A DNA stretch of 42,975 bases, from IMG/VR virus record IMGVR_UViG_2563366932_000014. One strand, 5' to 3'. Shown here piece after piece: positions 1,521 to 40,648 of this stretch (its first letter is position 1; each line of letters opens with the position of its first letter). The translations under genes were made by a program, and so were the position numbers. Origin of the DNA: a virus (taxonomy: Duplodnaviria; Heunggongvirae; Uroviricota; Caudoviricetes). Below the pieces are notes generated by a model that was given only the letters and a program-made list of their open reading frames with translations, was not told the DNA's origin and searched no databases.

Positions 1521-1577
1521 CTCTCATCATGTGCGAAAATTGACCACAATATGAAATCCAGTTCCATTCCGAAATCA

Positions 1578-2301
<724 letters not shown>

Positions 2302-2715
2302 TAGACTGGCCCCCTGAATCTCCAGACAACCAATATCACTTATTTAAGTGATAGTCTTAATACTAGTTTTTAGACTAGTCATTGGAGAGCAGATGATTGA
2401 TGTCTTAGGACCGGAGAAACGCAGACGGCGTACCACACAGGAAAAGATCGCAATTGTTCAGCAGAGCTTTGAACCAGGGATGACGGTCTCCCTCGTTGCC
2501 CGGCAACACGGTGTGGCAGCCAGCCAGTTATTTCTCTGGCGTAAGCAATACCAGGAAGGAAGTCTTACTGCTGTCGCCGCCGGAGAACAGGTTGTTCCTG
2601 CCTCTGAACTTGCTGCCGCCATGAAGCAGATTAAAGAACTCCAGCGCCTGCTCGGCAAGAAAACGATGGAAAATGAACTCCTCAAAGAAGCCGTTGAATA
2701 TGGACGGGCAAAAAA

Positions 2716-3735
<1,020 letters not shown>

Positions 3736-3833
3736 TCAATTGACAACTTATAATCCCTACTAGTTAGCATTATGATTTCCAGAGTGAGGAATATAAAAAT
3801 CTCTGTTTCTGGCACATAACAGCCCTTAAGATC

Positions 3834-3891
3834 GTAGCTCGCCATCATGGGGTGTCGGGGGGCGGAGGTTCAAATCCTCTCGTGCCGACCA
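3834..3891 (+). other. 3' fragment of a tRNA-Pro(GGG)-like gene (anticodon loop through CCA), probable attachment-site remnant
   Basis: ..tcatggggtgtcgggg..ggaggttcaaatcctctcgtgccgacca: T-arm GGAGG-TTCAAAT-CCTCT, acceptor 3' strand and CCA present; no 5' strand pairs with the acceptor, so not an intact tRNA. Confidence 0.6.
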
Positions 3892-3906
3892 AAAATCCCT
3901 TAAGAA

Positions 3907-3931
3907 CCAGCCTATTATGGCTGGTTTTTTT
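3907..3931 (+). terminator. rho-independent terminator just after the tRNA fragment
   Basis: stem ccagcc/ggctgg, loop tattat, then 7 T. Confidence 0.7.
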
Positions 3932-4099
3932 ATGATTGTTTTTTATGCGGAGAAATACCGGGGAATAATTGGGGTAAAACACCTTTAGGCTATTCACTTA
4001 GCCTACCACCATCAAAATCTTTCCGAATGTATCCATCTCTTTTTTCTTATGCAGCTAAAACGAAGTCTTGATACTGTTTATTTACACAGATAAGAATAA

Positions 4100-4119
4100 T
4101 ACTGTCTACAAACGCAGTA
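4100..4119. promoter_or_regulatory. LexA (SOS) box-like site upstream of the dinI-like remnant
   Basis: tactgtctacaaacgcagta matches the TACTGT-N8-ACAGTA pattern with one mismatch, about 14 bp before the ATG. Confidence 0.5.
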
Positions 4120-4132
4120 CAAAAGAAGTGTT

Positions 4133-4380
4133 ATGCGTATTGAGATCTCCATAGCCAAAGACAAAATGACCAAATGCCAAACGGCGCTGTGGACGCGTTA
4201 AAGGAAGAATTAACCCAACACATTGGCAAGCGTTATGACGATGTGGAGATGATCGTAAAAGCCACCAGCAACGATAGTTTTTCAGTTAGACATACTGCAG
4301 ATAAAGATTGAGCTAAAACTTTCGTTCAGGAAACTCTGAATGATACCTGAGAGTCTACTGAAGAGTTGTTTGTTCACTAG
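4133..4380 (+). pseudogene. dinI-like gene remnant (frameshift plus two in-frame TGA stops)
   Basis: frame A gives [11 protein letters not shown]..; a second frame continues ..[37 protein letters not shown].. then stop; AKTFVQETLNDT stop ESTEELFVH stop; the pieces together resemble DinI (recalled, not searched). Confidence 0.5.
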
Positions 4381-4675
4381 TTAGCACGTAGGAAATCATT
4401 CAATACTCGCACTATCGGAAGTTCACCAGCCAGTCGTAGCACGTCCTTGCAAACGACGTGCCTACGGTTTCAATCACCTCTCACCATCAATTCTATCAAT
4501 AATAATTAAACAGCGCCTAGACAAAATAAATAACAACAAGTCAACAACCTCGACAGGATGCCGATGGGATGATGAAGAGATAAGAAAGAATAACCAGTAA
4601 AGCCCTAAAACGTCAGCGTTCAGACGCGTTTTTTACTTAATCGGTAACAAATACGTTGTATCATAGCAAAATAAA

Positions 4676-6625
4676 ATGATTGTTCTAAATCAGATTAACT
4701 CCTCACTTTTGTACAATGTCGCTTACAGGTATACCATGAAATCCGAGACGCTAACTGTCCAACAACTTTTTCAAGACCGCCGACAATACTGTGTTCCATT
4801 CTATCAACGTGCCTATGTATGGACTCAGCAAGACCAGTGGTCAGCTCTACTGGAGGATATCCTAGAGAAAGTACAATCCCGGCTCTCGGGTACAAAACCA
4901 ACTCCCCATTTCCTTGGTGCGGTTGTACTGGAACCTCAATCAAAAAAAGGATTATTAGGTGTAGATTCCATACATATTATTGATGGTCAGCAACGATTGA
5001 CCACTCTTCAATATGTTCTGGCATCCATCCGATTAGCATTACGTGCTACGGATCTTTCCAGCTTAGAGGCTCTCATTTCGCCTTGCCTGAAAAACTCAAA
5101 CGAAGACACAATGCGAAATAAAGAAGTAGAACGCTTCAAACTGTGGCCAACTTTTCGGGATCAAACTCATTTTATTCAAAGTTTTAATGTTGAAAATATT
5201 GACGATCTCCGGGACGTATTCTCTGATAGTTTCACGCAGCATGGTACGTTGCGTAAGCATTTTAATCACCCGCCATCACTAGAAGCATTATGTTTTTTTA
5301 CTGAAGCCTTTATAAAATGGATTAAAATAGAAAACCACTCACCACAAGAAAATGCTGTAGCTCTAATTGAGGCTGTCTTAACAGATCTGAAACTGGTAAG
5401 CATATTTCTCGAAGCTGAAGATGATGCCCAAATAATTTTTGAAACATTAAATGGGCGAGGGGCGGAACTTCATGCTACGGATCTTATTCGCAACTATATC
5501 TTTATGTGCGCTGAGCATGAAAATATTAATGCTATTGAATTATATGAAAATGAGTGGAAGAGCTTTGAAGATAAATACTGGTCGGAAAAACAACGCCGTG
5601 GACGTATTAATAAACCACGCATGGAGTGGCTAGTACATGCGACATTGCAATCAGAAAGGCAACGTGAAATTGATCTGTCTCGCCTTTACAATGAGTATCG
5701 TGATTATGTAAGTAAGGACTTGTCTTCACAACGAGCAGATCTGCAAGTAAAGCGCCTCAAACAATATGCATCACAATATAAAGAATTGGTTGATGGTTTT
5801 GGCACAACCCCCATCTCACACTTTGGATATCGCATCGCAGACTATGATGTGACGACACTTTATCCGCTTGCTTTGTTCATTTCGATAGCTAACATCGCTG
5901 ATGATGAGAAAGCAGCCATGTATAATGATCTTGTCTCCTACGTAGTACGAAGAGCCGTATGTGGCCTGACGCCAAAGAATTACAACAATGTATTTATGAA
6001 TGTATTGCGGCACTTGGCTAAAACGGAAATTTCCAGTGTTGAGTTACGTAATATCCTCAATAACTTAAATGGCGAAGCCTCACGTTGGCCTGGTGACTCA
6101 GAATTTCTCAACGCTTGCATCAATGCTCCACTTTATCCTGGCAGGCTCGACGCACCGAAAATGCGCTCAATGTTAACGGAACTTGAAAGAGAACTTTGTC
6201 GCCAAGTAAAGACAGAAAAGCCTGATGTTCCAAATCTTTCTAATCTCGATATCGATCATCTTATGCCTCAAAGTTGGTATTCCTGTTGGCCTCTCGAAAA
6301 TGGTCGTATGGTGACAAATTCAGATGCTACGGTATTGAACCAAATTGTTCTGTCTGGAACCGATCTTACCCCTGAACAGCTACTGGTAAGGAAACGGCAA
6401 CAAGCGATATCTACTTTGGGAAATCTAACTTTGCTTAACCTTAGCGTAAACCGTTCTGTTCAGAATGCTGTATTTCTGAAAAAACGTGATGCTCTCATCG
6501 TCCACACCAATCTACGACTGAACATTCCACTTATAGTTAAGGATAAATGGGATGAGGATGAAATCCTGGAGCGGGGTAAAAAGTTGGGGGAAATTGCATT
6601 GAAAGTATGGCCAAAACACGATTAA
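4676..6625 (+). CDS. GmrSD-family (DUF262 N-terminal, DUF1524/HNH-like C-terminal) putative type IV modification-dependent restriction endonuclease
   Basis: 649-aa ORF; N-terminal ..FYQRAYVW.. and DGQQR motif; C-terminal ..DIDHLMPQS.. and ..NLSVNRSVQN.. His-Me finger-like; AT-rich by inspection; start may be the ATG at 4736. Confidence 0.65.
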   Translation: MIVLNQINSSLLYNVAYRYTMKSETLTVQQLFQDRRQYCVPFYQRAYVWTQQDQWSALLEDILEKVQSRLSGTKPTPHFLGAVVLEPQSKKGLLGVDSIHIIDGQQRLTTLQYVLASIRLALRATDLSSLEALISPCLKNSNEDTMRNKEVERFKLWPTFRDQTHFIQSFNVENIDDLRDVFSDSFTQHGTLRKHFNHPPSLEALCFFTEAFIKWIKIENHSPQENAVALIEAVLTDLKLVSIFLEAEDDAQIIFETLNGRGAELHATDLIRNYIFMCAEHENINAIELYENEWKSFEDKYWSEKQRRGRINKPRMEWLVHATLQSERQREIDLSRLYNEYRDYVSKDLSSQRADLQVKRLKQYASQYKELVDGFGTTPISHFGYRIADYDVTTLYPLALFISIANIADDEKAAMYNDLVSYVVRRAVCGLTPKNYNNVFMNVLRHLAKTEISSVELRNILNNLNGEASRWPGDSEFLNACINAPLYPGRLDAPKMRSMLTELERELCRQVKTEKPDVPNLSNLDIDHLMPQSWYSCWPLENGRMVTNSDATVLNQIVLSGTDLTPEQLLVRKRQQAISTLGNLTLLNLSVNRSVQNAVFLKKRDALIVHTNLRLNIPLIVKDKWDEDEILERGKKLGEIALKVWPKHD

Positions 6626-27431: not shown

Positions 27432-27869
27432 TTAGTTGGGACATTGCGTCCTGATATACTCCTGCAAGTAATTGACCTGTGAGGTTATCTTGTCGATTCC
27501 ACTTCGGAGACGGTAATAATGGAGTTCAGCATCTGCTGTAAGTCTAGGGCTTTCTCCATCGCCCATGCCGCTGGCTCCGGTCGTTGACTTTGTACAGGTG
27601 GCGGCGACTTGCAGGCGCTTATGCCCAGCAGAAACATCAGCACGAAGACTTTCGATAGTCGCATTAGCATCAGCAAGCTCCTTTGTATATCTGGCATCGA
27701 GTTCAGCTACATTACGTTGACGCTTCTGCATATCAGCGATGATGGATGTGGCTTTATCGCGCTGTACTTTGTAGACGATGGCGTCATCACGGTAATTATC
27801 AACAGCCCATGACAAGCAGACGATGATGCAGATAACCAGAGCGGATATAATCACCGTTACTCTGCTCAT
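27432..27869 (-). CDS. Rz: i-spanin Rz
   Basis: [22 protein letters not shown].. and overall translation closely match lambda Rz (recalled). Confidence 0.85.
27485..27670 (-). CDS. Rz1: o-spanin Rz1 (embedded in Rz in the +1 frame)
   Basis: embedded ORF with lipobox-like ..LLGISAC and proline-rich segment. Confidence 0.65.
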
Positions 27870-28342
27870 ACCTGAATCTCTTTGACCGTTCCGCCGGCTT
27901 CTTTGAATTTTTCAATCAGGCTGTCAGCCTTATGCTCAAACTGACCATAACCAGCTCCCGGCAGTGAAGCCCAGATATTGCTGCAACGGTCGATAGCCTG
28001 ACGAATATCACCGCGATCAATCATCGGTAAAGCACCACGCTCTTTAATCTGCTGCAGTGCAACAGCATCCTGGCTTTTTGGAGAGAAGTCTTTCAGTCCA
28101 AGCTGTTTACGGTATGCATCCCACCAGCGGGAAAGAAGCTGGTAGCGCCCGGCAGCCGTTGATTTGAGTTTTGGGTTTAGCGTGACAAGTCTGCGAGGGT
28201 GATCGGAGTAATCAGTGAATATTTCTCCGCCCACAATGACGTCATAACCATGATTACGTGTCGGTTGTAGCCCATTATCCGTTCCTTCTGACCAGGCCAC
28301 CATATCGAGGAAAGCTTTACGCTGAGGATTAAGATTTTGCAT
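27866..28342 (-). CDS. R: endolysin (lambda R-type lytic transglycosylase)
   Basis: ..[39 protein letters not shown].. near-identical to lambda R (recalled). Confidence 0.9.
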
Positions 28343-35826: not shown

Positions 35827-35895
35827 TGTACCTCCGGTGTACATATTACATGATTGAAATGAACCTTCAAGATACTTGTACCTTAACGGTACAAG
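35827..35895. promoter_or_regulatory. operator region between cro-like and cI-like genes with two GTAC-containing palindromes
   Basis: tgtac-N7-gtaca at 35827-35843 and the 21-bp near-perfect palindrome cttgtaccttaacggtacaag at 35875-35895. Confidence 0.5.
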
Positions 35896-35910: not shown

Positions 35911-36585
35911 ATGAAAACAATCCATGACATCCGGCGGTCTAACGCCAGAAAACTGAGAGATGGTGTTGGCGGGAATTCTTCCTTTGCCACTATGATTGAT
36001 CGCGAGCCAACCCAGACCAGCAGGTTTATGGGAGATGGTGCTACTAAAAATATCGGTGACAGCATGGCACGACACATCGAAAAATGTTTCGACCTGCCTG
36101 TCGGATGGCTCGATCAAGAACACCAGACAACGAACATCACAAAAAAACCTGATGTTTCAATCACTAATAAACAAATCACATTAGTCCCTGTCATATCATG
36201 GGTACAGGCCGGAGCATGGAAAGAAGTTGGATATTCTGAGGTTGATTTGAGCACAGCAGAAACGTATCCCTGCCCTGTACCCTGTGGGGAAATGACTTAT
36301 ATCTTGCGGGTGATAGGTGATTCAATGATTGATGAGTACCGCCCGGGAGACATGATTTTTGTCGATCCTGAAGTACCTGCCTGCCACGGTGACGACGTTA
36401 TTGCATTGATGCACGATACAGGTGAAACCACCTTCAAAAGGTTGATAGAAGATGGGACACAGCGTTATCTCAAAGCGTTAAACCCAAACTGGCCTGAGCC
36501 TTACATTAAGATCAACGGTAATTGCTCTATAATTGGTACTGTGATTTTCTCAGGAAAACCAAGAAGATACAAAATCAAAGCCTAA
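35911..36585 (+). CDS. cI-like repressor (HTH plus S24 LexA-like autopeptidase domain)
   Basis: N-terminal HTH; ..VQAGAW.. candidate Ala-Gly cleavage site; ..GDSM.. Ser and downstream Lys of S24 peptidases. Confidence 0.8.
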   Translation: MKTIHDIRRSNARKLRDGVGGNSSFATMIDREPTQTSRFMGDGATKNIGDSMARHIEKCFDLPVGWLDQEHQTTNITKKPDVSITNKQITLVPVISWVQAGAWKEVGYSEVDLSTAETYPCPVPCGEMTYILRVIGDSMIDEYRPGDMIFVDPEVPACHGDDVIALMHDTGETTFKRLIEDGTQRYLKALNPNWPEPYIKINGNCSIIGTVIFSGKPRRYKIKA

Positions 36586-36596
36586 TCAATGTTTAT

Positions 36597-36620
36597 GAAC
36601 CTGCTTCGGCAGGTTTTTTT
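36597..36620 (+). terminator. rho-independent terminator of the cI-like gene
   Basis: aacctgc ttcg gcaggtt followed by 7 T. Confidence 0.7.
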
Positions 36621-36624
36621 ATAC

Positions 36625-36662
36625 TTGACAATGTACCTTTGGGATACATAATGTACCCAAGA
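36625..36662 (+). promoter_or_regulatory. candidate pL-like promoter with operator-like GTAC half-sites
   Basis: TTGACA - 16 nt - CATAAT; AATGTACC repeated twice across spacer and -10. Confidence 0.4.
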
Positions 36663-36787
36663 GAAACAACAAACAGGCAGGACGCCCACGAAGTAGCCGC
36701 CTGGGGCATATGAAGTCCAGGATGATTCGTTAGCAACAAAAAAGCGCCCTATAGGACGCTTCGCTCTTTAACAATCTGGATGACTTA

Positions 36788-37300
36788 TTACTCAGATTTG
36801 AACTTTGGTTCTGGCAAAAGAGGAGGAGTTGAGTCCTCGAATCGTAGCCAGTGCTCCCAGATATCGTGGGATTGTAATTCCAGAAGACCAATTTGACGTG
36901 ATGCAACTGCAGTGCCAGCTATAGTTCCTCCTGCATAATCAACCTGGACGGACTTTGACGCTTTCTCAATTAATTCTGTCCAAGCTTCACTTTCCGCGTT
37001 AAAAGAAGCAGTTAATTCCTGCAGACGCTGTGGATCATCCTTGTTGTCTTGTTTCAAACGATTCAGGGCGGCCACCGAATACTTATTCTTAACCCAACTA
37101 ACCTGAGCTAACTGAACTCTCTGACAAGCGTCCATATCAGTAGTTGTTTCCTGAGGCATATCAAAGCAGGAAATAAAAAAAGTCTCAACACCATCATTTA
37201 GACTACTGCTCGGCTGGTTCAAAGCATCAGAAGCATTGGATGCTATCGGTATTATCAGTGCTACCGACAGAATCAAACGTTTAACATAAATCGCTCCCAT
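36788..37300 (-). CDS. secreted DUF1311 (LprI-like lysozyme-inhibitor family) protein
   Basis: N-terminal signal-peptide-like segment (..LILSVALIIPIASNA); family call from recalled similarity; GAGGGG RBS. Confidence 0.55.
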   Translation of the reverse strand: MGAIYVKRLILSVALIIPIASNASDALNQPSSSLNDGVETFFISCFDMPQETTTDMDACQRVQLAQVSWVKNKYSVAALNRLKQDNKDDPQRLQELTASFNAESEAWTELIEKASKSVQVDYAGGTIAGTAVASRQIGLLELQSHDIWEHWLRFEDSTPPLLPEPKFKSE

Positions 37301-37586
37301 TTAATTATCCCCTCTAAGAACAGAGTCATCCAGATTAGCCGAATCCTTGTTGTTGGGGAATAACCAGGCCCACCTCGCCTGATGTGGCTAAAAGCAGGCA
37401 CATAACAGCTAAGTATTTTCAACCAGAGAGAATCCTTAGCGTTGTGGTGAATGCGGCTCAGCGCACGCGGGTTAAGGTTGAGGCTGACAGTCGACCTTCT
37501 GTGGATACCCACCCGCCTGGTGTGCAACCTTCGCCAGGCACCGGGAGGCACCCGGCACCACAACTTTATGCTGTGTGTAGTCCTGG

Positions 37587-37632
37587 CGGTACCAGCTTGT
37601 ACCCTTGCTTCCGGCTGGTACCGCTCTTTTTA
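37587..37632 (+). terminator. strong intrinsic terminator within the early-left leader
   Basis: perfect 11-bp stem gcggtaccagc/gctggtaccgc, 17-nt loop, then TCTTTTT. Confidence 0.55.
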
Positions 37633-37768
37633 CAAAACAGAGAAGAGCATCACCGGACGACGGGCTCATAACCCAATCCACCCGGGCGGCTGCCACCGCA
37701 GGTGTTCTTCTCTGTTTTGTGGAGAAACCAACCGACCTTGCAGGGTCGATATGATGAGGAGCAGCAAA

Positions 37769-38131
37769 ATGGCTAGCGAACGCAGTACCAACGTGCAGGA
37801 ATTTATCGGGGAGCTGGACGGCGGCGTATTTGAAACCAAAATCGGCGCAGTTCTCAGTGAAGTCGCTTCCGGTGTGATGAACACGAAAACCAAAGGTAAG
37901 GTCTCGCTCAACCTGGAAATCGAACCGTTTGATGAGAACCGTGTGAAAATAAAACACAAACTCTCATATGTTCGTCCGACTAACCGCGGGAAAATTTCCG
38001 AAGAAGACACCACCGAAACGCCGATGTATGTCAATCGCGGTGGTCGCCTGACTATTCTGCAGGAAGACCAGGGACAATTACTGACTCTTGCCGGTGAACC
38101 TGACGGAAAACTCCGCGCAGCAGGTCATTAA
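37769..38131 (+). CDS. hypothetical early protein (120 aa)
   Basis: GAGGAG RBS then ATG at 37769; the listed 226-aa ORF's N-terminal part is Arg/Cys-rich translation of the structured leader. Confidence 0.5.
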   Translation: MASERSTNVQEFIGELDGGVFETKIGAVLSEVASGVMNTKTKGKVSLNLEIEPFDENRVKIKHKLSYVRPTNRGKISEEDTTETPMYVNRGGRLTILQEDQGQLLTLAGEPDGKLRAAGH

Positions 38132-39781: not shown

Positions 39782-40648
39782 ATGAATCAAAATCCATTCT
39801 CATTCTATGACTTTCTTGGATATTTAATACCAGGTGGTTTTTTTATCCTATTAATGTATTTCTGTGGTTTGACATTCGATCTAGATATTGTTATTGACTT
39901 AAGTGAATTGCTCAGAGGTCAAAGTCAAATCTTTGGCATTTTGAACTACGCTTCAATAGTTATTATATCTTATATAGCTGGACATTTTATTTCTATCACG
40001 TCAGCATTTTTTATCGAAAAATACATGAATAAAGAATTAGGATATCCTTCCAAATATCTATTTAAAAAATTGATAGATACCTCAGAAAGCATTTGTAGCC
40101 CATCATGCGATGAGAGAAGCGCTGATAAAAAAACAAAAATAAAGAATCGCATAATCAAATGCGTATTATGTCCAATAATACTATGGGATTTTATAACACA
40201 AAAACTATGTTATTCTCAATCTCTACCATTTCATTTAGCTAATACAACATGGTTAATGATCAAAGAAGGTTATGAGAAAAAGTTCATAACAAATCGCCAA
40301 TTATTACAAGATAAAAACGGACTTGATGATGATCTCTTCAGATTGGCATATCATTATGTTTATGAGTTTTCAAAACAACATCAAACAAAAATTCAAAACT
40401 ATGTTGCATTATATGGTTTTTGCAGAAACATATGTTTAATCTTTATAATTTCATTTTGGGTATCAGTTCCAACCTTTATTTATCGATTATGTACTCATAG
40501 TGATTATCTTTATAGTTTACTTTCAATAATGCTTAGCTTTTTCTTCGTCTATGTTTTCTATGTTGGTTTTGTTAAATTTTATAGAAGATATACTTTAGAA
40601 GTATTAATGGCATTTGCTGTACTTCAAAGTAACGACACTATTCGTTAA
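39782..40648 (+). CDS. very AT-rich four-TM membrane protein of unknown function
   Basis: two N-terminal and two C-terminal hydrophobic helices around a ~140-aa soluble region; GGAGAG RBS before the ATG at 39782; listed ORF starts at 39758. Confidence 0.55.
   Translation: MNQNPFSFYDFLGYLIPGGFFILLMYFCGLTFDLDIVIDLSELLRGQSQIFGILNYASIVIISYIAGHFISITSAFFIEKYMNKELGYPSKYLFKKLIDTSESICSPSCDERSADKKTKIKNRIIKCVLCPIILWDFITQKLCYSQSLPFHLANTTWLMIKEGYEKKFITNRQLLQDKNGLDDDLFRLAYHYVYEFSKQHQTKIQNYVALYGFCRNICLIFIISFWVSVPTFIYRLCTHSDYLYSLLSIMLSFFFVYVFYVGFVKFYRRYTLEVLMAFAVLQSNDTIR

Follow-up and report, generated by a model that had tools for sequence, protein, structure and literature searches.

An exported DUF1311/LprI-like protein is one of the exchangeable cargos of a conserved dock in the early-left leader of SfV/e14-like and other enterobacterial temperate phages

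The DNA analyzed here (IMG/VR record IMGVR_UViG_2563366932_000014; 42,975 nucleotides [nt], hereafter the window) is a complete SfV/e14-like prophage according to the RefSeq annotation of Escherichia coli S88, and its minus strand carries an open reading frame (ORF) of 170 amino acids (aa) at 36788 to 37300, in the leader downstream of a pL-like promoter. We find that this is a real, conserved gene and that it forms the exchangeable insert, or cargo, of a conserved dock, which is found in the pL leader of phages of the SfV/e14 type and of numerous further temperate phages of enterobacteria. Its product has the sequence features of an exported, divergent member of the DUF1311/LprI superfamily. 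The explanation that we consider best overall, with a probability of roughly one-half, is that this exported protein neutralizes an incoming lysozyme-type enzyme and is carried as the cargo of a dock defined by a boxA and by the two arms of an inverted repeat. An initial annotation, made from the sequence alone, had described a secreted DUF1311/LprI-like gene inserted in the immunity region and had seen in it a plausible lysogenic-conversion factor. The observation is confirmed and the interpretation partly supported; what the annotation did not contain is the wider setting, a widespread dock that has an rrn-type boxA and a flanking inverted repeat and in which the gene is one of several cargos. 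The elements of the locus, in window positions, are as follows.

35911 to 36585, plus strand: cI-type repressor gene (LexA/S24, ymfK-like; RefSeq "LexA family protein, ymfK")
36597 to 36623, plus strand: intrinsic terminator of the repressor gene, an 8-bp stem (GAACCTGC/GCAGGTTT) followed by a T-run
36625 to 36652, plus strand: pL-like promoter, TTGACA-16-CATAAT, with 11 of 12 consensus matches; an annotated promoter in phage Ayreon
36632 to 36648 and 36652 to 36668: two operator-like sites of 17 bp each, TGTACC-N5-KRWACA, overlapping the pL-like promoter
36665 to 36731, plus strand: conserved opening stretch of the early-left leader, with matches in 50 phage records
36731 to 36762, minus strand: intrinsic terminator of the cargo gene, a 9-pair stem (GAAGCGTCC/GGGCGCTTT) with a T-run
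36763 to 36774, plus strand: rrn-type boxA, GCTCTTTAACAA, in the sense of the pL transcript
36773 to 36796, no strand assigned: left arm of the inverted repeat, with the perfect core AATCTGGATGACT at 36773 to 36785
36788 to 37300, minus strand: cargo gene, an ATG ORF of 170 aa for a predicted exported protein of the DUF1311/LprI superfamily
37309 to 37314, minus strand: Shine-Dalgarno sequence GAGGGG, read from the sequence, 8 nt 5' of the ATG
37313 to 37336, no strand assigned: right arm of the inverted repeat, with the perfect core AGTCATCCAGATT at 37324 to 37336
37337 to 37405, plus strand: right flank of the dock, containing TTGTTGGGGAATA at 37350 to 37362 and conserved across 62 different right flanks
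37411 to 37633, plus strand: STnc100-like structured RNA (Rfam RF02076, full model length)

The minus-strand frame was recovered exactly as first annotated, with its Shine-Dalgarno sequence and a double stop codon, TAATAA, at its end. It is not a chance frame, since its product matches PHROG 7681 over the full length (E value, 1e-120), has homologues in approximately 20 clusters (54 to 99% identity; E. coli, Escherichia albertii, Klebsiella, and other Enterobacteriaceae), shows a dN/dS of 0.10 to 0.21 against three homologues, which denotes purifying selection, and is annotated in RefSeq (WP_000500990.1). The homologues of 54 to 75% identity come from Klebsiella, E. albertii, and other Enterobacteriaceae. 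Two of the homologues lie in prophages with the position and orientation seen in the window, one in E. albertii (65% identity) and one in a Klebsiella-type prophage (74% identity) that has a different repressor and one additional gene; two remoter homologues are chromosomal. The stretch from 36590 to 37700 recurs with 100% identity in the chromosomes of E. coli S88, APEC O1, and ATCC 11775 (the type strain) and in those of further isolates, for the most part of human or bird origin. Of 5426 complete E. coli genomes, 146 carry the cargo gene itself at ≥99% identity, S88, APEC O1, CFT073, and ATCC 11775 among them, whereas its flanks are found in approximately 2800 E. coli genomes. A tblastn search of 50,697 GenBank phage records with the cargo protein gave no match.

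All elements needed to place the gene between the repressor terminator with its neighboring pL-like promoter and the early-left operon, as had been claimed, were located. The repressor gene is 98 to 99% identical to the cI genes of SfV, SfIV, PhiR49_1, and e14, and its terminator is also annotated in SfV and Ayreon. Elsewhere in the window, the operator-like pattern occurs only in the cI-cro intergenic region (at 35827 and 35877); the five matches in the whole window against 0.03 expected are indicative only, because the pattern was written from those same sites and the statistic is thus partly circular. Judged by their sequences, the promoter and the operator-like sites are arranged as one would expect for a pL under repressor control. 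The early-left genes yfdP, yfdQ, and yfdR, two ORFs, and int all lie on the plus strand from 37769, so that a pL transcript must cross the cargo gene antisense, in agreement with the initial annotation. The records that share the first part of the leader include SfV, SfII, ST64B, mEp237, ZF40, YeP1, and Klebsiella phages, mostly with nothing annotated there, and cover the genera Escherichia, Salmonella, Shigella, Klebsiella, Yersinia, Pectobacterium, Pantoea, and Citrobacter. The terminator of the cargo gene is one-way: read on the plus strand, its stem contains a C.A mismatch and is not followed by a U-tract. Other cassettes keep this element in their left flank. Folding of the pL leader and of the 3' region of the cargo gene was no better than that of shuffled sequence (z scores of −0.5 and 0.04). 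The RefSeq annotation of the prophage lists no N-like gene, and no dedicated search for one was made.

That the gene is inserted, as proposed at the outset, follows from its replaceability. Homology to the window breaks and resumes at 36781/37328 in PhiR49_1, at 36731/37370 in SfV, and at 36682/37584 in Ayreon, and PhiR49_1 carries a different minus-strand gene in precisely this slot. In the manner of morons, the cargo gene gives way to other genes in phages that are otherwise nearly identical, and it is equipped with a minus-strand terminator of its own. Phages e14 and SfV share the promoter and the leader with the window up to 36731 to 36734, but the stretch from 36732/35 to 37369 is replaced there by a different insert without boxA or arms.

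Two independent scans of IMG/VR show how widespread the arrangement is. Searching with 19 nt of the left junction, CGCTCTTTAACAATCTGGAT, returned at least 120 contigs; among the matches listed, this motif is followed by dozens of different sequences, and in 87 of the 120 contigs the motif TGTTGGGGAATA lies 269 to 924 nt downstream. The second scan used the right-flank motif CCTTGTTGTTGGGGAATA and likewise gave at least 120 matches, 67 of which were new contigs with sufficient upstream sequence; among these listed matches, GCTCTTTAA[C/A]AA is found 525 to 848 nt upstream in 57 of the 67, with 41 exact copies. Pooled, the scans yield at least 140 viral contigs and at least 101 distinct cassettes, and, among the matches listed, the longest ORF runs opposite to the pL strand in 97 of the 101. 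Repressors of at least 10 unrelated types are encoded upstream of the dock. The cargos fall into at least four main families among the matches listed:

Coiled-coil and zinc-ribbon protein, at least 50 contigs: phrog_1244
Soluble protein of 144 to 151 aa, at least 42 contigs: phrog_5286
Two-transmembrane protein, at least 31 contigs: phrog_6315
DUF1311-like protein, at least 11 contigs: PHROG 7681

All PHROG families matched by dock cargos are annotated as of unknown function. For the other cargos, Pfam gave only a sub-threshold coiled-coil match to the coiled-coil cargo (18.3 bits against 29.1), and PADLOC gave only a marginal 2TM "Effector" match to the two-transmembrane cargo (E value, 0.0097). 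An "empty" dock with these flanks, AATCTGGATATCCAGATT, was sought in IMG/VR as well, and its four matches are all unrelated sequences. Some cassettes depart from the common form. At four IMG/VR loci, the DUF1311-like ORF begins at an internal Met (124 aa, MPQQTT...) and is without the signal peptide, and a fifth locus has the same shortened cassette with no intact ORF; the right arm is gone in all five, which are probably decaying copies. One further locus holds two copies of the boxA/left-arm motif, at positions 719 and 1108 and thus 389 nt apart, which hints at tandem docks.

The upstream edge of the dock is marked by the boxA, which is identical to the rrn boxA-spacer sequence ugcucuuuaacaa (rrn sequence from PMC2724277) and is the sole match to GCTCTTTAACAA in the window at up to one mismatch; it is retained even in cassettes with differing arms. 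The two arms bracket the cargo with a 13-bp perfect core, extended to 24 nt at 79% complementarity, and stand 516 nt apart, the left-arm core overlapping the final two bases of boxA. We observe that most cassettes have the outer nine base pairs in common and that the inner ones differ by cargo in matched variants (ATCC/GGAT, GACT/AGTC, ACCCC/GGGGT, and ATCCTA/TAGGAT), with single compensated changes as well (e.g., GGT/ACC and GAAT/ATTC). In one cassette type, the arms are of unrelated sequence and still pair (GTAACCCTC/GAGGGTTAC). We assessed covariation on 36 distinct arm pairs, using five measures, 500 shuffles, and slid-register controls. The 17-pair arm helix is 88% paired, against at most 51% in the slid-register controls, and 10 of its pairs have changed on both sides; the observed covariation was reached by none of the 500 shuffles on four measures and by one of them on the fifth, further pair types. 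Folding of the whole module, on either strand, predicted the long-range helix in six of seven cassette types. A transposon or miniature inverted-repeat transposable element (MITE) as the source of the arms was rejected: there is no transposase, the repeats are inverted and not direct target duplications, and the outer nine base pairs are constant across cargos while the inner ones vary with the cargo.

The closest parallel to this layout that we see is the leader of the rRNA operons. There, boxA is necessary and sufficient for assembly of the rrn antitermination complex, and the proposed role of its anchoring on NusB is to keep the leader strand close to the polymerase up to the emergence of the trailer, so that the leader-trailer helix can form (PMC10250234). 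In the dock, too, boxA is a perfect GCUCUUUAACAA with a hairpin ahead of it, in the place that boxB takes in rrn; the 5' strand of a long-range helix comes directly after it, and the 3' strand lies beyond an insert of 0.3 to 0.9 kb. Unlike in rrn, the RNA that would be looped out is the antisense of a protein gene, the helix has 13 to 21 bp, and Nus binding and RNase III cleavage are suggested by analogy. A resemblance of "TTGTTGGGG" to rrn boxC is an impression only.

Turning to the encoded protein, a signal-peptide-like N terminus had been noted, and sequence rules bear this out: the n-region is MGAIYVKR (charge, +2), the h-region is a 12-residue hydrophobic core (LILSVALIIPIA; mean Kyte-Doolittle value, 2.9), and the c-region offers an SNA|SD cleavage site, features of a Sec/SPase I-type signal that are kept in the family. 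There is no lipobox, no Cys in the signal peptide, and no second hydrophobic segment. The protein is thus predicted to be exported from the cytoplasm via its Sec signal and to be periplasmic, with a mature form of 147 aa, approximately 16.5 kDa, and pI 4.6 that contains Cys45 and Cys59. An AF2 model (pLDDT, 79; pTM, 0.75) leaves residues 1 to 23 unstructured and agrees with the helical-bundle fold of the solved superfamily member 3GI7 (PP0307 of Pseudomonas putida), to which it adds a family-specific N-terminal beta-hairpin and a C-terminal strand.

The DUF1311/LprI assignment of the initial annotation stood in a profile test and fell short in the direct one. The direct match to the Pfam LprI/DUF1311 family (PF07007; residues 50 to 137; E value, 0.006) scores 17.3 bits, below the gathering cutoff of 22, and because of this we tested homology without any known DUF1311 sequence, building a profile from eight close relatives and running it against 1.8 billion representative proteins. 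This profile recovered 243 proteins at an E value of ≤0.001, aligned over profile positions ~51 to 166. PF07007 is matched independently by 85 of 87 aligned sequences (the window protein and 86 profile matches), and hhalign of the close family against 70 profile matches gives a probability of 99.9% (E value, 2.9e-33; 33% identity over 120 columns). The nearest named relatives (E values of 1e-36 to 1e-33; Yersiniaceae and Carnimonas) bear the NCBI name "lysozyme inhibitor LprI family protein," and the branch shares the C-terminal motif HD[IV]W..WL.[FY].DSTPP.LPEP, which can also be written W-x-x-W-L-x-[FY]-x-D-S-T-P-P-x-L-P-E-P. Other searches with the cargo protein added little: PF09864, the MliC domain, was not matched even at E values up to 10, NCBIfam returned one meaningless match of 11.7 bits, a PDB sequence search with the family profile gave nothing significant, and the BFVD viral fold search gave no match. 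On these profile comparisons, we consider homology to the DUF1311/LprI superfamily solid and the cargo protein a new, divergent, prophage-borne branch of it, set apart from PF07007 members such as 3GI7 by its sub-threshold score, its prophage location, the lack of a second Cys pair, and the additional hairpin and strand.

The family name says less about function. Lysozyme, including hen egg-white lysozyme, is inhibited by LprI of Mycobacterium tuberculosis (Rv1541c) and by Liberibacter SDE5, and LprI additionally carries an MliC domain (PMC12744762). ScwA of Salmonella, a periplasmic and horizontally acquired protein with an LprI domain, controls the levels of the lytic transglycosylase MltD and showed no role in lysozyme resistance (PMC7933661). 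Some DUF1311 proteins are type VI secretion system (T6SS) immunity proteins, e.g., the muramidase antagonist Etsi4 (PMC12981562). All characterized DUF1311 proteins that we found in the literature relate to cell-wall hydrolases, and the thread common to their functions is a periplasmic interaction with peptidoglycan-cleaving enzymes; "lysozyme inhibitor" is a family name that is not simply transferable to the cargo protein. By analogy, we infer that the cargo protein is a periplasmic binder of a lysozyme-like enzyme. It resembles LprI and SDE5 in its LprI-type domain and extracytoplasmic location, whereas LprI is a lipoprotein with an MliC domain and the cargo protein has neither lipobox nor MliC. 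T6SS immunity proteins sit beside their effector, whereas the cargo gene, in its prophage context, adjoins no effector or T6SS genes. A phage precedent, in mechanism only, is T4 Spackle, a periplasmic protein that inhibits the tail lysozyme and so excludes superinfecting phage (PMC7677548): both are small, phage-encoded proteins with a signal peptide that could block a foreign muramidase in the periplasm, although Spackle is an early gene of a lytic phage and the cargo gene a prophage gene beside the repressor.

Under the explanation that we prefer, the repressor of the lysogen would sit on the two operator-like sites and shut pL, and the cargo gene could be read without opposing traffic, its transcript ending at its own one-way terminator. 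The exported protein would then bind and neutralize, in the periplasm, a lysozyme-type peptidoglycan hydrolase coming from outside; the favored targets are enzymes of microbial conflict, i.e., the tail lysozyme of a superinfecting phage, as for Spackle, or a T6SS muramidase, with host lysozyme as the alternative. Upon induction, transcription from pL would cross approximately 0.55 kb of untranslated cargo antisense; the boxA at the upstream edge of the dock may recruit Nus factors and so shield RNA polymerase from termination by Rho, and the inverted repeat on either side of the cargo may form a leader-trailer helix, with the cargo looped out or the antisense insert processed. Its reversed position in a dock that holds other small genes in related phages makes the cargo gene a credible candidate for a lysogen-protecting gene.

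Several observations weigh against this explanation. A search of the minus strand over the 500 nt upstream of the cargo gene (37301 to 37800) found no sigma-70-like promoter, and expression of the gene in the lysogen is for this reason an assumption of ours. Beside the sub-threshold Pfam score, the second Cys pair, near-invariant in the nearest DUF1311 branch, is absent, so that two of the four usual cysteines remain, and the corresponding columns hold Ser and Ile/Gly throughout the close family. DUF1311 is an unreliable predictor of lysozyme inhibition, given that ScwA has no lysozyme role and LprI has its extra MliC domain. PADLOC does not match the cargo protein, Spackle shows no sequence similarity to it and no fold match in PDB searches, and the neighbors of its chromosomal relatives give no functional hint and include no T6SS or effector genes. 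Orthology to E. coli YecT was considered and rejected, as was orthology to the T6SS immunity protein Etsi4 of enterohemorrhagic E. coli, with no detectable sequence similarity in either case (hhalign probability, 0.15% for Etsi4). On the RNA side, boxA is not universally needed for early-left transcription, since e14 and SfV have the same promoter and leader without the boxA/arm module. G.U wobble pairs are more frequent on the plus strand (34 against 13 cells; P = 0.003), but a ratio of approximately 2:1 is expected from the composition of the more variable, C/A-rich left arm, and the excess therefore does not tell which strand folds.

Different targets for the protein have to be weighed against an incoming enzyme of a competitor. 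Lysogenic conversion directed at the animal host, whereby inhibition of animal lysozyme in the periplasm would let lysogens among extraintestinal and avian pathogenic E. coli (ExPEC/APEC) survive serum, egg white, macrophages, or urine, appears unlikely to us. The family name, the export signal, the presence of the gene in the ExPEC/APEC genomes S88, APEC O1, and CFT073, and the action of both LprI and SDE5 on hen egg-white lysozyme (PMC12744762) speak for it; set against these are the missing MliC domain, the enterobacterial LprI-domain protein ScwA with no lysozyme phenotype (PMC7933661), and the other dock cargos, proteins of the cytoplasm or the membrane for which a host-directed role is not obvious. 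E. coli, moreover, already has dedicated lysozyme inhibitors, namely, Ivy, MliC, and PliG. A partner that is no hydrolase at all, with the DUF1311 fold serving as a scaffold for phage exclusion or another prophage service, e.g., through a periplasmic or inner-membrane component of DNA entry, seems decidedly unlikely, even though the superfamily is extremely diverse, neither Etsi4 nor YecT is detectably similar to the cargo protein, and the N-terminal beta-hairpin, the C-terminal strand, and the invariant DSTPPxLPEP tail are family-specific. Genes beside repressors are also often exclusion genes, as known from lambda rexAB and Salmonella BTP1 bstA. What tells against such a partner is that no positive evidence points to one and that the characterized members concern cell-wall hydrolases. 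We regard as quite improbable a housekeeping role in which the protein would modulate the lytic transglycosylases or other peptidoglycan hydrolases of its own host. ScwA, with its LprI domain, periplasmic location, horizontal acquisition, and control of MltD levels, offers a model for it (PMC7933661), but ScwA is larger (LprI domain at residues 185 to 271) and has two disulfides, the cargo protein is single-domain with one Cys pair, and the prophage context gives no pointer to murein turnover.

For the dock, a broader proposal is that it constitutes a portable device for housing a lysogen-expressed gene backwards in an early operon; with all of its steps taken jointly, we put this forward tentatively and rate it as rather doubtful. 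In such a device, boxA would let the pL polymerase cross the antisense cargo without Rho termination, and, boxA being tethered to the polymerase, the arms would snap into a leader-trailer helix, as around 16S rRNA. The helix could be cut by RNase III or act as an insulator, which might silence the cargo on induction and free the downstream leader, possibly including the STnc100-like RNA, and the device would serve several exclusion factors in exchange for one another, the DUF1311-like protein among them. The competing view is that arms and flanks are recombination "boundary" sequences or palindromic insertion relics with no RNA role, and that boxA is coincidental or belongs to the other strand. 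The exchange breakpoints fall exactly at the arms, the right arm and its flank are near-constant while the left arm decays, the wobble asymmetry is indecisive, and e14 and SfV manage without the module, all of which this view accommodates. It has more difficulty with the 10 of 17 pairs changed on both sides, beyond all 500 shuffles (1 of 500 on one measure) and the slid controls, with the cassette type whose arms are unrelated in sequence and yet pair, with the retention of boxA where arms differ, and with the lack of an empty palindromic site with these flanks in IMG/VR; we see it as possible and, on balance, not probable.

The arrangement is a variant of the lambdoid habit of keeping accessory genes beside the repressor. 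Accessory genes of the lambda rexAB and BTP1 bstA type likewise lie between repressor and early-left operon and vary between phages. Unlike these, the cargo gene lies downstream of pL, within the leader and antisense, in a portable dock with boxA and arms that is common to phages with unrelated repressors. We found no earlier description of the antisense placement in a pL leader, the portable dock, the rrn-type boxA, or the covarying arms; literature searches with the accession and for boxA together with moron gave nothing relevant, with incomplete coverage of the literature, and this is not proof of novelty.

With this protein, a family of which few members have been studied, all of them in connection with cell-wall-cutting enzymes, gains a divergent branch carried by prophages. 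The presence of the gene in CFT073, S88, and APEC O1 makes it a candidate that can be tested at low cost for a part in phage exclusion, protection against T6SS, or tolerance of lysozyme. The dock is of wider interest than the family assignment, being a conserved site behind many unrelated repressors that holds one small antisense gene. If arms and boxA work as proposed, they would explain how lysogen-expressed genes can be embedded in the leader of an early operon without breaking it, and PHROGs 1244, 5286, 6315, and 7681 would be flagged as likely lysogen-protection families.

Between the dock and yfdP, the STnc100-like element matches RF02076 with 45.4 bits, just under the gathering score of 47 (E value, 2e-8), and ends in a strong plus-strand terminator hairpin (37586 to 37624, with a T-run); RefSeq calls a "frameshifted hypothetical protein" across it, at 37444 to 37754. 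Should pL transcription stop at this point, the leader could yield the element as a 3' product. Just upstream of the match, at 37397 to 37409 on the plus strand, we noticed by eye a GGCAC-N5-AGC sequence with the −24/−12 spacing of sigma-54 promoters, and RpoN binding at STnc100 copies in Salmonella is quoted in a passage of PMC12370729. A further inverted repeat, with 25-nt arms that are 84% complementary and 39 nt apart, lies at 37632 to 37720 (plus strand), directly behind the STnc100 terminator and ahead of yfdP.

According to the RefSeq annotation of S88, the prophage has a head of the HK97 type and a contractile tail of the Mu type, together with genes for a Q antiterminator, a holin, a GH24 endolysin (window positions 27865 to 28341), and the integrase. 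Between yfdR and the integrase, an AT-rich ORF at 39782 to 40648 (plus strand) encodes a 288-aa multipass membrane protein and is likely an accessory gene. At the tail-fiber end, 1530 to 6624 holds nuclease-type accessory genes, named by RefSeq as a PD-(D/E)XK nuclease, a GIY-YIG LEM-3-like protein, and DUF262; the cluster adjoins a recombinase fragment and duplicated tail-fiber assembly genes and looks like a second hotspot for cargo or defense genes.

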